A stretch of 36,280 nucleotides of DNA from a virus. Lineage: Duplodnaviria; Caudoviricetes. Under the pieces are notes generated by a model that saw only the letters and a list, made by a program, of their open reading frames with translations, ran no database searches and had not been told where the DNA came from. The translations under genes and the position numbers were made by a program. Shown piece after piece: positions 18,570 through 32,950 of this stretch. How positions within the stretch are numbered: position 1 is the stretch's first letter; each line of letters starts with the position of its first letter. Location: the IMG/VR virus record IMGVR_UViG_3300030372_001513, positions 1 through 36,280 of that record; one strand, given 5' to 3'.

Positions 18570-18820
18570 CACGTTTGTTATCCTAAAGGCTCTTTATCCT
18601 TTAGTTCTACATCTTTACCATTGATGTAGGTCGGACTATATCTTCAACCCAGAGGGTTGCAAGGCACTCTTGGAAGCATTACTGAGTTTCCTCTCGGCTT
18701 CTAGTCTCTGAACCTTCCAGTTGGTGTACTGGCTTGGCTGCTGATTACCCCTTTATTGGTGGGCTTCCAGCAATTCACCTCGTTCATTCCTGTTATTACT
18801 AACAGAAAGCCCTAAAGTTA
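18570..18820 (-). ncRNA. Group I self-splicing intron (251 nt, no ORF, IA-like) in the major capsid gene
   Basis: P AATTGCTGGAA, Q AATCAGCAGC, R GTTCAGAGACTAGA, S AAGATATAGTCC; P1 with U.G, P10, terminal G; removal restores ...DALFLKVFSGEV... Confidence 0.95.
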
Positions 18821-18891
18821 AGGAATAAGGCATCAAAATCTGTGCCTGTATTGTTCACCAAACCAAGACGAGATGTGGTAGCGTTAGCCAT
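18821..18891 (-). CDS. Major capsid protein, exon 1 (spliced product 328 aa)
   Basis: AAGGAG SD; MANATTSRLGLVNNTGTDFDALF(L); 71+916=987 nt in frame. Confidence 0.93.
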
Positions 18892-23084: not shown

Positions 23085-23093
23085 TGTTAATGT
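23085..23093 (+). promoter_or_regulatory. Extended -10 (TG-T-TAATGT) for sRNA candidate 1
   Basis: Lies 6-7 nt before the first hairpin base. Confidence 0.5.
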
Positions 23094-23099
23094 ATAAAT

Positions 23100-23170
23100 A
23101 GCAAGGATTGGTTGCCTTGCTGTACTGTTTGAAGACCCTATGTTGGTGGTTCCTCATAGGGTTTTCTTTA
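23100..23170 (+). ncRNA. Candidate trans-acting antisense sRNA (two stem-loops)
   Basis: AGCAAGG/CCTTGCT stem, linker GTACTGTTT, 12-bp stem with G.U valid only on +, loop TTGGTGGTTCCT, U-rich end; unpaired parts match early-gene RBS regions. Confidence 0.65.
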
Positions 23171-23902
23171 TGGCTTCCAAAGATTTACTTCTCCTGTTTG
23201 ATAGTTATAATCACCTTCTCTAAGTATTCTTGTCAGTCTTGCATTGAGTATGGCATCAGCTAGTGTATGACCTTTCTTTGTATAAGTCTTTGATACTTTA
23301 TCCCATAGTGCTTGAACAGTGTCAGGTGTATCAGCTAAGGTCTTGCTTGCTGTAACCATACCCATACCTTTAATACCTAGTATTCCATCACCTGCATCAC
23401 CAGCCATAGACATTTCAAACCAATGCCTGTTCGCTTTTTTTTCTGTAATATGTTCTATCTCTTCTGCTGCTAGTAGCTTGCAAGGAATGGTCCTCATATC
23501 CTTATCGACTGACACGATGATAGGATTGTCATACCTACCATTAGTTGCAAGTAACCCAAGTACGTCATCACCCTCAAGGTTTGGATAAGCAATACATTCA
23601 TATCTTTCTTTTACTTTGTTGATTGTATTTTTAAGAGCTAAAGGTTTTAGCTTTCCTATCCTGTTAATTTTGTAGTCAGGAAATATCTCATGTCTAAATG
23701 TAGGGTAAGAAGTAAAGCACATAACAATATCGTGCTTGCCCTCTGCAATAGTTCTATAAACATCAAGTCTATTTTCTATTAAGTTAAGACAGTCTCTTAC
23801 ATCACTATGTAATGTATGCTCCCATTCACTCCATCTTGTATCTTCCTGACAAGCACAGCAGCTAGAGAATATCAACCAATCAGCATCTATAAGTAGTGTC
23901 AT
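23168..23902 (-). CDS. 5'-3' exonuclease (gp6)
   Basis: LLIDAD, FR..I.PDYK.NR, LEGDDVLG, SVDKDM, GD..DG..G.KG.G. Confidence 0.93.
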   Translation of the reverse strand: MTLLIDADWLIFSSCCACQEDTRWSEWEHTLHSDVRDCLNLIENRLDVYRTIAEGKHDIVMCFTSYPTFRHEIFPDYKINRIGKLKPLALKNTINKVKERYECIAYPNLEGDDVLGLLATNGRYDNPIIVSVDKDMRTIPCKLLAAEEIEHITEKKANRHWFEMSMAGDAGDGILGIKGMGMVTASKTLADTPDTVQALWDKVSKTYTKKGHTLADAILNARLTRILREGDYNYQTGEVNLWKP

Positions 23903-26534: not shown

Positions 26535-26590
26535 GTTTTTTTTACCTTGGTTTGGTTGCTTGATAAATCGTCTATAAAAGACGTTCACTT

Positions 26591-26618
26591 ACTATACCTT
26601 GATCTTTGCTTATGTAAA
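26591..26618 (-). promoter_or_regulatory. Possible sigma70 promoter for replication genes
   Basis: TTTACA-16 nt-TATAGT. Confidence 0.4.
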
Positions 26619-29006
26619 TATATATGGTGCAGTCAAAACATCTGTAATGTTATACCCTCCCATATCTAATACAGGTGGTAACTTACTGGTATCACTTAAT
26701 TGCTTTGCTGTTTGATGGTACAAAATATCTAAATTATTGTCACTATATATATCAAAGAATGTTTGCTTTACACATTGAATAAATGTTTCTAGTTCACCTG
26801 CTGGACTTCCATAGCAGTCATGTATAACACAGAATTGTTTAAGTTCTTTTTGACTAGCCTTTACTAAACTTAACTGACAATGTGCAGCATCTAAACTATG
26901 TATATAGTTACTAGGAAATCCTTGTGACTGTCTGCGTTTATCTATCTTTATCTGGTTTGGTTCATGTATATTTAATCTTATAGTTATATTACTTAGCTTT
27001 GTCTTTATTCTCTTTACATCATTTACATAATAGTTTTGTTGAACATAGAAACCGGATGGTGAATGCCAAGCAATAGGTTTATTCTCTTCATTAAAAGATG
27101 CAGCAGTAGTCCTTAAATAATTTAATAAGTTATAGCTCTCAGGTGTTATATATTTTACTGCTTGTTCGATAAGACTTGCTAAGTAAAAATTATTTTTATA
27201 GTTCCTAGCCATAGATATATTTTCATTTACAAAATACTTTTCTATATAGTTAGCTATACCGAATGTTGTTGAGTTGTATGGAATCATAAGCACAGGTTTC
27301 TTTATAAACTTTCTAGTCAATTTATCTTTATATTTATACCATTCTTTAGCCTGTTCATTATCTTCATTCTTTAGCAGTAACAATAAAATATCAAGCACTT
27401 GTTTATATAAATCTTGTGGTTGATTCATATTTTGTAGGTTTACTTTATTAGCTAAACTCTGGTCAAATGTAAGACCTGCTATATGTTGATAACCATTATT
27501 AGTTCCATCAAGGCAGCAGCAATGACGAGAGATATACCCTTCTCCTACCATTTGATATTCATGCCATTCTTTACACCAGCCAAGAAATTGAAATGGTTCT
27601 TTTGCCTGACCCCACAAAGCTGTATGTGCCTTTGGATCTTTATACACTTGCTCTGCTATATCAATTCCTGCTGTATATGCCCACTCTAATCTTTCCTCAT
27701 AGGTATGTTTATTAAGACCCCAATGATTTGCACCTGCAATAGCTAACCAGTTTGCATCTTGTTTGTTTTTTATTTCCGCACCCTTATGAAAGATATGTAA
27801 GGCTCTAGCAATATCATTACCTTGTGGATGAAAGTGTGCTGTTACAGGGTACATCCGACCAGTAAAGTCAAACTGATAAACGTGATAAAATTTTTCGCCA
27901 TCATATCTTTTTGCTGTATCAATCAAGGTAAGTATTTGGTATCTTTTAACTCTATTGTGTGCGTTCATATCATGTATTAAAGAAGCTAAATATCTCCACT
28001 CCTTACGACTTTCTTTATTTGTATCTATGTCTAAAGGTTTTGTTGGTAGCTCTGCCAGTTCTCTATCAATACATGACCCTACTTCTATACGTTCTTCCCA
28101 ACAATACACTAGAGTTTCAAGAACAAATTTATTTACAGTCCAAGCTGTTTGTTGAGCAAGAGACAACGCTCTTAGACTTGTTGTTAAGTCTTGGCCTTGT
28201 GCTGACTTTAAATAAGCTTTGTCGTTAGTCTTAATAGCTTTTGTTTTTAATCTGTAAGTGTAGTAACCACCTTCATATATAGAAGTCCAAGGTCTAGGTT
28301 CATCTAAGCAAGGTAGGTAGATAGGATAAGCTGCTATCCTATTAGCTCTACCTTTCCTTATGTAATTCATATACACCTCAGTAAAGATAATATAAGAGGT
28401 AGTTTTATTTTTATTTCTACGATTGATAAGCTTAATCATTTTAAGCTTGAGCATTACTATCTCAATAAGCTTTAGCCCAACCTTAAGTTTATTAACACGA
28501 CCCCACTCTTCATAGGTATGACCCTTCTTATTCATGTGATATACCATTAATCTTTTTTTATATCCTTCGTGGTTGGTGTCTCTGGTATGGTTCTTAATAT
28601 TTTCATAGTGCTTTTTATCTTGCTCTTCAAAAGATGAAAACCTTAATTCATCTTCAAGCATTTGCCCTATTTTAAAAGCTGTTTGTGTTGTAGTTTTTGT
28701 TTGCGAAACATTATCTATTATCACCTTAAAGGCAATAAAAGAAACTACATCAAGGTCACTAAACTTTTTAAGAAAGATAGCAGAGACAGCTTTGGCTCCG
28801 ACCTTACCACTAAAGGCTTCTTGTATATGTTTATCTATTTCTTTTGTAAGCTTATCTAGCCCTGCTTCAATAAGATTCCTAGCGTAGTAATTACAACTTT
28901 CCCTGCCCTTCTCTATGTTTCTATTTTGTTTGCTGAGTTTGTTGTATGCAGCAATAGAACAGATACTTTTCTCTAGTTGTAACTGTCTTTCACTAGGCTC
29001 AGTCAT
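26610..29006 (-). CDS. Single-subunit T7-type RNA polymerase
   Basis: DFTGRMY, motif A LDGTNNGYQH, motif B RKFIKKPVLMIPY, NYIHSLDA, motif C IHDCYG. Confidence 0.96.
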   Translation of the reverse strand: MTEPSERQLQLEKSICSIAAYNKLSKQNRNIEKGRESCNYYARNLIEAGLDKLTKEIDKHIQEAFSGKVGAKAVSAIFLKKFSDLDVVSFIAFKVIIDNVSQTKTTTQTAFKIGQMLEDELRFSSFEEQDKKHYENIKNHTRDTNHEGYKKRLMVYHMNKKGHTYEEWGRVNKLKVGLKLIEIVMLKLKMIKLINRRNKNKTTSYIIFTEVYMNYIRKGRANRIAAYPIYLPCLDEPRPWTSIYEGGYYTYRLKTKAIKTNDKAYLKSAQGQDLTTSLRALSLAQQTAWTVNKFVLETLVYCWEERIEVGSCIDRELAELPTKPLDIDTNKESRKEWRYLASLIHDMNAHNRVKRYQILTLIDTAKRYDGEKFYHVYQFDFTGRMYPVTAHFHPQGNDIARALHIFHKGAEIKNKQDANWLAIAGANHWGLNKHTYEERLEWAYTAGIDIAEQVYKDPKAHTALWGQAKEPFQFLGWCKEWHEYQMVGEGYISRHCCCLDGTNNGYQHIAGLTFDQSLANKVNLQNMNQPQDLYKQVLDILLLLLKNEDNEQAKEWYKYKDKLTRKFIKKPVLMIPYNSTTFGIANYIEKYFVNENISMARNYKNNFYLASLIEQAVKYITPESYNLLNYLRTTAASFNEENKPIAWHSPSGFYVQQNYYVNDVKRIKTKLSNITIRLNIHEPNQIKIDKRRQSQGFPSNYIHSLDAAHCQLSLVKASQKELKQFCVIHDCYGSPAGELETFIQCVKQTFFDIYSDNNLDILYHQTAKQLSDTSKLPPVLDMGGYNITDVLTAPYIFT

Positions 29007-29841
29007 TTAAAACATTAACTACAGAGTGCAAAGCTTTGGGTTGTAAGTGTGCATAGATCATGGTGTTCTCTATGTCTTCATGCCCTAGCCAATCCTTAAC
29101 CAGTAGTATCGGTACACCTCTCTGTACTAGCCTAGACGCACAAGTATGTCGGCATAGGTGGATAGTATAAAACTTCTTATCGGCATAACCTAAGTCCTTC
29201 CTAGCCTTCTGCCATATAGCATTTAGTTCGCTGTAGTTAAGACTAAATAATTTATCAAAGTCTTTTACTTCTCTGTAATATCTTCTGATTGATGATTGCA
29301 CTCTATTAGTCATAGGTATAGCTACAGCTTGATCGTTTTTTCTATCAATGAAATTAATTTGATTATTATCAAAGTCAATAAATCTTTTCTCAACATTAAG
29401 TAATTCATTTACTCTGCAACCTAAATCAATTAAACATTTAATAATTTCTGCTGCTTGGTTAAAGTGTTTGTCGTAAAGATAATCTAATAAATCTTTCTCC
29501 ATATCCTCAGTTAAGTAATGCACCTTACTGTTCTTTGTTGGTCTAGGTTTTGGCATCTTTATCATTTCTATAAATCCGTCCTCCTCCATTTCAGATAAGA
29601 CGACCCTAAGATAACCCATTTTCTGATTAATAACTGCATTACTATTCTTTAATTTTTCTTTGTGATAATCCATCATTTTATTTACTAAGGGTCTTGTAAT
29701 TTTATTTACTGGTAAATCCCCTAGTGCTTTGATGTTGTGCTTCATCCCTATCAAAAAATTAGTAGCAGATTTAGTTCCGTTCTTTCTTCTTCTATATACA
29801 ACCCTGGTTGCTTCAGAAAGTGTAGGCATTTTAGTGTTCAT
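28999..29841 (-). CDS. int: Tyrosine integrase
   Basis: Catalytic R (GCRVNEL), K, HxxR (HLCRH), LGH, Y (TMIYAH). Confidence 0.93.
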   Translation of the reverse strand: MNTKMPTLSEATRVVYRRRKNGTKSATNFLIGMKHNIKALGDLPVNKITRPLVNKMMDYHKEKLKNSNAVINQKMGYLRVVLSEMEEDGFIEMIKMPKPRPTKNSKVHYLTEDMEKDLLDYLYDKHFNQAAEIIKCLIDLGCRVNELLNVEKRFIDFDNNQINFIDRKNDQAVAIPMTNRVQSSIRRYYREVKDFDKLFSLNYSELNAIWQKARKDLGYADKKFYTIHLCRHTCASRLVQRGVPILLVKDWLGHEDIENTMIYAHLQPKALHSVVNVLND

Positions 29842-29865
29842 GGTGGTTCCTCAAAGGTAAGTTTA

Positions 29866-30744: not shown

Positions 30745-30789
30745 GGTGTTTGGCTCCTTTTGTAAGCTGGTTGTAAGTCATGGTAAACA

Positions 30790-31130: not shown

Positions 31131-31215
31131 AGTGGTTCCTAATAAGGTTGATAGTAAGAGACTTGTTAAGAGTCCCTTTTAGAGGGTCCTAAAACCCTCT
31201 AAGAGAGATACTTAA

Positions 31216-32172: not shown

Positions 32173-32269
32173 GGTTCTTGGTTGATTGATTTGTACTGTT
32201 AGAGTCTTGTTAAGGACTCTTTAAAGCCTAAATAAAGGCTTTAAGGAATCGTTAGAGATTGTTTAATTA

Positions 32270-32467
32270 TTAGAAACTAATTCCTTGTGGTTGGTTCTGG
32301 ACTAACTCAAATGTAAAGCCTAGTGTTTTTAAATCTTGGATGTTCCATTGAGTTAAGGTCTTGTTGCCTGTCAAGCTTTGTAAAGCATCCCTTTGAATTG
32401 GGTCAATGACGTCCACAAAAGTATTGCCGTAAGCTTCCCTAGTTTTGACTTTGATTGATAAGTTCAT
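32270..32467 (-). CDS. First early hypothetical protein
   Basis: 65 aa, YG...L.G.KTLT...I..LK.LG..F. Confidence 0.75.
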   Translation of the reverse strand: MNLSIKVKTREAYGNTFVDVIDPIQRDALQSLTGNKTLTQWNIQDLKTLGFTFELVQNQPQGISF

Positions 32468-32515
32468 GGTTGATTAGTTGGTACTGTTTAGTTAGTTGGT
32501 TTACTAACTGTTTTT

Positions 32516-32545
32516 AATATACCAACATATGCTGGTATTTGTAAA
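32516..32545 (-). promoter_or_regulatory. Early sigma70 promoter with palindromic operator-like spacer
   Basis: TTTACA-18 nt-TATATT with TG extension; ATACCA-A-CATATG-C-TGGTAT at 32519-32538. Confidence 0.6.
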
Positions 32546-32926: not shown

Positions 32927-32950
32927 TCTCTCCTATAGTGGTCCCTAATA
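32927..32950 (-). promoter_or_regulatory. T7-like phage RNAP promoter (phiOR position)
   Basis: TATTAGGGACCACTATAGGAGAGA versus T7 TAATACGACTCACTATAGGGAGA. Confidence 0.6.

Follow-up and report, generated by a model that had tools for sequence, protein, structure and literature searches.

The CI RNA of phage P4, which serves immunity, is a small RNA that silences genes of its own phage through two separate short pairings (PMC4825925). It is processed from the very transcript that it controls, and it makes transcription terminate prematurely at seqA/seqC in one leader. In phages P1 and P7, the antisense repression exerted by C4 is required for lysogeny (PMC8198154), and C4 is a secondary repressor of icd-ant, within its own operon and under the protein repressor C1. 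On the host side, the Prochlorococcus sRNA Yfr1 is a short, terminator-ended RNA with two hairpins and an exposed single strand, found in a host devoid of Hfq (PMC1242208). Among T7-like phages, LUZ100, P-SSP7 and HTVC019P share a MarR–integrase module in which the integrase lies upstream of the RNA polymerase gene and a proposed repressor controls polymerase expression (PMC10134795). A standing puzzle concerns the integrase-bearing T7-like cyanophages, which integrate, yet for which neither a repressor nor a lysogen has come to light (PMC8776855).

Here we describe an element of such a phage which, by its predicted pairing, works like P4 CI and P1 C4 RNA yet belongs to neither family. The likeness lies in the two-site pairing of unpaired segments, predicted here for the leaders of an ArdC-like gene and of the first early gene; the Rfam scan of the window matched no curated model of either family. 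Unlike CI, the RNA is not cut from a transcript that it controls: it is expressed, by prediction, from a promoter of its own on the opposite strand, 6.7-9.4 kb from its class I targets (9.4 kb from the first early gene), and is predicted to cover the ribosome-binding sites of at least five genes. In contrast to P1 and P7, no protein repressor was recognised, and the targets are scattered class I genes plus the integrase. Yfr1 differs in being host-encoded with one conserved seed and has no Rfam similarity to the element, which is phage-encoded, self-targeting and type-variable with three seeds. Compared with the MarR–integrase module, the present lineage carries a zinc-ribbon gene at that position and no MarR match, and the predicted control is exerted by RNA at the level of translation. 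The literature, mostly its freely accessible share, yielded no description of the element; the supplements of the P-SCSP2 paper, or broad surveys of predicted RNAs in phages, could contain it without a function. In its text that paper, the only one found to name P-SCSP2, has no occurrence of "ncRNA", "non-coding" or "repressor" (PMC9860041). The comparisons below point to a real and conserved phage sRNA, not described before, that covaries unusually clearly with targets in the same genome; it would act as an RNA brake in viruses for which no repressor is known.

The virus and its nearest relatives

The window, that is, the whole stretch of DNA analysed, is a linear virus contig of 36,280 bases (CheckV completeness 98%). 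Its minus strand encodes a T7-like RNA polymerase, SSB, endonuclease, primase/helicase, exonuclease, portal, capsid, tail and terminase; it also carries an integrase and an ArdC-like anti-restriction gene (ArdcN and MPTase-PolyVal domains), and a DNA polymerase gene is absent. A preliminary description of this DNA had called it a T7-like phage with an integrase, which the PF00589 match and the T7-like gene set bear out. T7-like gene order with an integrase and without DNA polymerase defines the P-SCSP2 subgroup of the MPP-C clade, and the closest isolate was Prochlorococcus phage P-SCSP2 itself (exonuclease 74%, integrase 66% identical). This MPP-C cyanopodovirus has the same gene order, likewise without DNA polymerase, and carries the element, unannotated; its copy differs by one additional hairpin. 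Judged by these features, the window comes from a Prochlorococcus podovirus of the P-SCSP2-like (MPP-C) kind, whose lineage has been described as very abundant in the surface ocean (PMC9860041). The 11 small ORFs of the window matched no HTH or MarR family (E up to 0.5), and two MarR queries gave no match across 331 oriented loci of the lineage. A group I intron (Rfam RF00028, 75.8 bits; 18607-18837, minus strand) interrupts the major capsid gene of the window, and the capsid gene of P-SCSP2 is annotated as a single 987-nt CDS.

In 49 of 51 distinct junctions, overlapping stop and start codons link the integrase gene to the RNA polymerase gene without a break, and this chain persists although 0-3 unrelated ORFs intervene between the two. 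A Shine-Dalgarno-like word precedes the polymerase start in 14/51 junctions. From the chain and the low count of such words we infer that RNA polymerase is translationally coupled to the integrase; it counts against this argument that compact phage genomes often have genes that overlap. The anatomy agrees with the idea, already voiced in the preliminary description, that silencing the integrase could affect the polymerase. The same junction (e.g. in L102, L105 and L092) is a hot spot for 0-3 unrelated small ORFs, almost always overlapping. The coordinates of the features are collected in Table 1.

Table 1. Positions in the window of the sRNA gene, its predicted target sites and neighbouring genes
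Feature	Position	Strand	Basis and remarks
Extended -10 promoter (TG-n-TAnnnT), TGTTAATGT	23085..23093	+	Sequence; predicted for host RNA polymerase, start site near 23099-23100
Predicted sRNA body, ~70 nt	23099..23170	+	Fold z -5.3; match of 71 bits to a covariance model built from the element's own family
Stem-loop 1, loop 23107-23114 with invariant TGGTT core	23099..23122	+	Two-sided changes in 5/7 pairs; invariant columns
Single-stranded linker, second seed (GTACTG type here)	23121..23130	+	Predicted unpaired; type tracks leaders
Stem-loop 2, loop 23143-23154 as main seed	23131..23166	+	Two-sided changes in 12/13 pairs; stem also predicted intrinsic terminator
U tract (7/8)	23162..23169	+	Sequence; overlaps exonuclease stop codon of other strand
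Exonuclease gene	23168..23902	-	phrog_107; convergent on sRNA gene
Possible SSB leader site, weak	26552..26559	-	8 nt exact; no covariation with loop 1
T7-like RNA polymerase	26610..29006	-	PF00940; no Shine-Dalgarno-like word before start here; predicted translational coupling to integrase
Tyrosine integrase, 280 aa	28999..29841	-	PF00589; stop overlaps RNA polymerase start by 8 nt
Integrase Shine-Dalgarno through A of ATG	29841..29853	-	13/13 complementary; predicted duplex -24.3 kcal/mol, strongest of 14 leaders
Ribosome-binding site, ORF starting 30744 (likely further target)	30752..30758	-	One G.U pair; -14.1 kcal/mol
Ribosome-binding site, 84-aa ORF starting 31130	31132..31140	-	9 nt exact; -17.8 kcal/mol
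Two-part site (loop 1 and linker), ArdC-like gene leader	32178..32200	-	7 + 9 nt, order as in RNA
Two-part site (loop 1 and linker), first early gene leader	32467..32489	-	6 + 9 nt, order as in RNA
Sigma-70-like early promoter before first targeted leader	32516..32545	-	TTTACA, 18 nt, TG-n-TATATT; read from sequence, predicted

Structure, strand and conservation of the RNA gene

The extended -10 box and the two hairpins with open loops that the preliminary description had placed here were both recovered. The two-hairpin fold gave z = -5.3, with none of 200 shuffles equally stable, and loop 1, the linker and loop 2 had a predicted unpaired probability mostly above 0.8. A consensus terminator scan missed the terminator because its loop exceeds 8 nt. 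Reading the plus strand of 38 distinct stems, we counted 38 G.T, one C.T and no A.C among the internal non-Watson-Crick pairs (only single such pairs within Watson-Crick stems were taken); the RNA is therefore the plus strand, antisense to the core genes, as first proposed. Stem covariation, which had been named as a check, was extensive across 52 distinct insert-free sequences, with two-sided changes in 17/20 pairs and 91.6% of cells paired against at most 61.7% in slid controls; six long-loop rows of this set are misaligned in stem 2, and the stem shuffle test is inflated by the relatedness of the sequences. The secondary structure is thus kept on one strand, as expected of a trans-encoded sRNA.

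To place the element among relatives, 339 sequences were gathered by searching with the exonuclease, the integrase and the polymerase and with a single DNA pattern, many contigs being counted repeatedly; 331 had core-gene matches. Of 241 testable and partly redundant loci (exonuclease end present plus at least 450 nt beyond), 239 had the element behind the exonuclease gene, 236 by the pattern and three more by a relaxed one. The two exceptions were a contig ending inside a long insert before the expected position and P-SCSP1u, from which the element is absent. Altogether 288 copies were collected, of which 282 were parsed into 67 distinct bodies; the six others were cut off or missed the anchor, and P-SCSP2, one of these, was read by hand. 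The final T of the -10 box was kept in all 282 parsed copies though the pattern had left that position free, and the three middle bases occurred in 24 variants; a final T that stays constant while the middle bases vary is the signature of an extended -10 box. By sequence comparison, the element accordingly has what a trans-encoded sRNA would have, its own promoter (-10 signature in 282/282) and an intrinsic terminator of hairpin and U tract.

An integrase was found in all 33 element-bearing loci with enough upstream DNA, and the RNA in 0/28 P-SCSP1-like loci, where an integrase was seen in none; this co-occurrence is a single contrast between two lineages. Rfam holds no family for the element in the window, where the scan matched only the group I intron, or in three relative loci (best E 0.077, unrelated). 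A family covariance model (R1) detected no homologue in P-SSP7 (1-22 kb), HTVC019P (1-20 kb), P-RSP2 and P-SCSP1u, or in seven loci without core genes that had been retrieved by pattern only (best E 0.75), and in four outgroup phages a generic scan for a promoter plus hairpin returned nothing comparable. A search of public RNA runs gave six (word shares up to 0.13). With four runs compared with the window and four with a common-type locus, the contigs of five RNA-library runs, which are blind to strand and to small RNAs, had pieces only in the genes flanking the element. Additionally, a 1.2-Mb metagenome-assembled genome (G001) includes two contigs of this phage group, C23 and C29 (L340, L344), with different sRNA types, probably binned phage DNA.

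Complementarity to translation starts in the window

All matches between the unpaired segments and gene leaders quoted in the preliminary description were located. TGGTGGTTCCTCA occurs at 23144 and 29841 and nowhere else in the window, and GTGGTTCCT at 23146, 29843 and 31132; the integrase match is present at 13/13 bases, with its last two bases sitting in the stem, outside the loop. TTGGTTG was found at 23108 and 32178, and the matches of TTGGTTG and TGGTTG are where they had been described, these short motifs being common (7 and 20 places on the plus strand, respectively). TGTACTGTT occurs at 23121 and 32192, GTACTGTTT at 32481, and TTGGTTGC at 23108 and 26552 only. The last of these underlay the proposal of the SSB leader as a target: the 8-nt match exists, but it is weak, and SSB was rejected as a covarying target since the same leader text stands beside other loop-1 types. 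The leader of ORF 30744, which the earlier list did not contain, is a likely target with one G.U pair.

Matches of at least 7 nt were present in 4/8 class I leaders and 2/31 other leaders (Fisher p = 0.011), two of those 31 start positions (endonuclease, capsid) being off by a few bases. When the three unpaired segments were shuffled, a comparison that had also been suggested, 26 of 3000 shuffles reached the observed 4/8, and 5.1% of all 36-nt plus-strand windows have a comparable match. Taken alone, this within-window enrichment at start sites is suggestive only because shorter motifs are common. The predicted duplex was strongest for the integrase, followed by ORFs 31130 and 30744, and the target leaders are almost unstructured (0 to -4.4 kcal/mol). 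Long imperfect hairpins, which we take to resemble RNase III processing sites of T7 early RNA, lie between early genes at 31166-31215 and 32211-32254, just upstream of targeted leaders.

Covariation of loops and leaders across genomes

The 61 loci that contain the element and also extend at least 1.5 kb beyond the polymerase on its upstream side were reduced to 31 non-redundant genomes, and five loop-2 types were defined from the RNA after inspection. In 28 of these 31 genomes, which are not independent of each other, the dominant early-leader motif corresponded to the genome's own loop-2 type, against a permutation mean of 14.3 and maximum of 23 (0/100000). This is the covariation of loops with early leaders that the preliminary description had called for. 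GTGGTTC was present in 55/204 leaders of GTGGTTC genomes and 0/101 of the others, and GTGACTC in 10/65 own leaders and 3/240 others, all three from one mosaic. Among the four rarer loop-2 types, 9/10 genomes matched their own leaders, and GTGACTC pairs of RNA and leader fall in two separate clades of the RNA polymerase, integrase and exonuclease trees (the last by FastTree). In P1/P7, heteroimmunity arises through matched changes of RNA and target, which the loop types seen here parallel. With respect to duplex energy, the own RNA surpassed the mean of the other types in 28/31 genomes and the best other type in 15/31. RNA type and leader type disagreed in 2/31 genomes (L080 and L184), and L035 was a tie. 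Both L080 and L184 are mosaic in early region versus sRNA; they are either chimeras of assembly or true recombinants, which would escape the RNA.

The linker tracks leaders as well, with GTACTG in 4/28 and GGTAAAG in 8/87 own leaders; the commonest linker type, GCAAC, matched 0/168. For loop 1, tracking rests on three related genomes, the window's small lineage, in which TGGTTG occurs in 7/28 and TGGTTA in 0/28 leaders; elsewhere the counts are 11 and 26 of 255. In cultured P-SCSP2, loop 2 matches four leaders, integrase included, and the extra hairpin matches the phage's own ArdC leader at 10/10 bases; likewise, the extra hairpin of L025 matches its own exonuclease start at 10/10 bases. These are the two of eight distinct inserts, tested on their own loci, that match an own start codon at 10 nt. 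Short complementarity to distant translation starts that covaries with them, the remaining feature of a trans-encoded sRNA, is thereby seen both in the 28/31 genomes and in the P-SCSP2 insert. Additional variable-loop hairpins, inserted between stems 1 and 2, occur in L012, L025, L031, L036, L210, L218, L220, L221, L261, L266, L271, L291, L337 and L081; the other six of the eight tested inserts had no own start-codon match. The L120 insert has an 11-nt match near terminase, which was dropped, the site lying inside terS and away from a start codon.

Proposed mechanism, biological role and alternative explanations

The element is very probably a trans-acting, multi-target antisense sRNA that represses translation. 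Of the interpretation first put forward, an antisense sRNA directed at early and integrase ribosome-binding sites stands, on the strand bias and the covariation of stems and loops; SSB drops out, and a role in immunity or lysogeny is what we infer beyond this. Starting from the extended -10 box, host RNA polymerase would make the RNA, about 70 nt long in this phage and about 100 nt in P-SCSP2, and its exposed loops would pair without Hfq to unstructured, A/C-rich leaders, which fits the lack of hfq in MED4 (PMC1242208). Loop 2 would cover the Shine-Dalgarno sequence and start codon, and in the first leaders loop 1 and the linker would hold on to two neighbouring sites. Blocking translation of the integrase and several class I genes may hold the phage delayed or latent, and the integrase block would also lower RNA polymerase, because overlapping stop and start codons chain the two genes. 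Incoming phages that share the loop type would be excluded. Speculatively, lytic transcription from exonuclease to head genes would cross the sRNA gene, and the resulting full-length complement would titrate the sRNA, creating a two-state switch; in the window, the minus strand has no U tract after stem 2, so that lytic transcripts could read through in this way. In many relatives an A tract precedes stem 2 and could make it a weak two-way terminator.

As to its main role, we lean slightly towards a brake that confers latency and homo-immunity, given the specificity types, the extra loops, the co-occurrence with integrase and the erratic behavior of P-SCSP2, which is reported either not to burst at all or to burst after anything between ten hours and days (PMC9860041). 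Several observations count against this role. No host-phage junction beside the integrase was found in 331 loci, nor a tRNA-type attP, there being no tRNA in the window or these loci, and nothing matched the P-SSP7 att region; a T-loop-like pattern was present in 118/338 loci, mostly about 3 kb downstream of the exonuclease. For S-TIP37 and P-SSP7, published work found transient integration but neither lysogeny nor immunity (PMC8776855), and the first 22 kb of P-SSP7 are without the RNA. Moreover, a sigma-70-like promoter before SSB (26569-26618, minus strand), overlapping the RNA polymerase stop and followed by a conserved palindrome CGTC...GACG, was seen with that palindrome in all 27 distinct junctions examined, and class II genes may therefore bypass the phage polymerase and escape the brake. 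The main rival is the same antisense sRNA acting as a lytic timer, whose gene would enter some 9 kb after the early genes and then shut off translation of class I genes and the integrase. Its location at the boundary of class II and head genes, 9.4 kb from the first early gene, would suit such timing, as would targets that are nearly all class I, the failure to find prophage or attP in 331 loci, and the finding of no lysogeny in other T7-like cyanophages (PMC8776855). A timer leaves unexplained, however, why there are at least five loop-2 specificity types, why L025 directs an extra loop at its own exonuclease start, and why the integrase-less sister lineage lacks the RNA; we consider it rather unlikely, and the latency and homo-immunity brake the likelier of the two.

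The remaining explanations are weaker still. It is improbable that host or competing-phage mRNAs are the main targets, or that pairing stabilises messages, with the own-leader matches secondary: most inserted loops and the commonest linker have no own start-codon match, and mosaic genomes survive with mismatched pairs of RNA and leader, but own leaders covary with own loops. Against stabilisation, the sites cover Shine-Dalgarno and ATG, and the leaders are unstructured, leaving nothing for pairing to open. An element that, between the exonuclease and the head genes, is only a processing hairpin or a terminator working in both directions, with matches reflecting generic A/C-rich leaders and anti-Shine-Dalgarno-like words, would suit the A tract before stem 2 in many relatives, the shortness of the loop-1 matches and the GTTGATTG-like leader repeats in pelagiphage HTVC019P, whose first 20 kb are without the RNA. 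We regard it as very improbable, in that the plus-strand promoter signature is conserved, the wobble bias is 38 to 0 in favor of the plus strand, and type-specific matching of loop 2 and linker is not obtainable from generic leaders. Protein-sponge RNAs display short repeated motifs in loops, and here too short motifs that recur at start codons are displayed in loops; the preliminary description had offered, as its alternative, a decoy for an RNA-binding protein that recognises them, to which a DNA-binding protein may be added. A decoy would need the same sense as the mRNA sites, and the structured strand is the opposite one, on which ground this alternative is rejected; moreover, three unrelated motifs and the inserted loops each track leaders and would require several co-changing proteins, so we hold any such reading highly improbable. 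Finally, the leader motifs might be taken for phage RNA polymerase promoters, given that the T7-like promoter behind terminase and the leader of ORF 31130 are identical at 15/16 positions in the window. That promoter keeps TATTA-N7/8-TATAGGAGA, with a middle that varies regardless of loop type, whereas the leader motifs end in ATG and follow loop type; the idea was rejected and retains a negligible probability. The promoter itself (32929-32950, minus strand) lies directly after the terminase gene, is the only clear copy in the window and is conserved in this form among relatives.

Returning to the latency and homo-immunity brake, a more far-reaching version is possible but doubtful. A modular RNA may have replaced a protein repressor, the sRNA and the convergent lytic transcript forming an RNA-only bistable switch between lysis and latency, with loop types as immunity groups and hairpins added like spacers. 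If true, this switch would explain the erratic lysis of P-SCSP2, and no Prochlorococcus podovirus would have had a regulated latent state described before it. The element in any case represents a concrete candidate regulator for the puzzle of integrase-bearing T7-like cyanophages, and since it is present in a cultured, erratically lysing phage on a cultured host, it is directly testable. Allele-specific controls come ready-made with the natural loop and leader types, which might also yield small orthogonal repressor parts that work without Hfq.

A second non-coding RNA in relatives

Between the sRNA and the exonuclease stop, several relatives carry a second plus-strand non-coding RNA gene, which is absent from the window (L013, L016, L020, L025, L027, L031, L045, L047, L061, L069, L127 and others). 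It has its own extended -10 box and terminator and was found in 22 distinct versions in 39 loci, with lengths of 137-274 nt. No Rfam match was obtained for it in L013 or L022, and it is not antisense to phage leaders, the single own-locus signal being a self-match. Our guess is that it may be an array of decoy RNAs against host defences. The second RNA is built of shuffled structured modules with short TAAG-like linkers between them, and one of these modules is pseudoknot-like, with compensatory changes.
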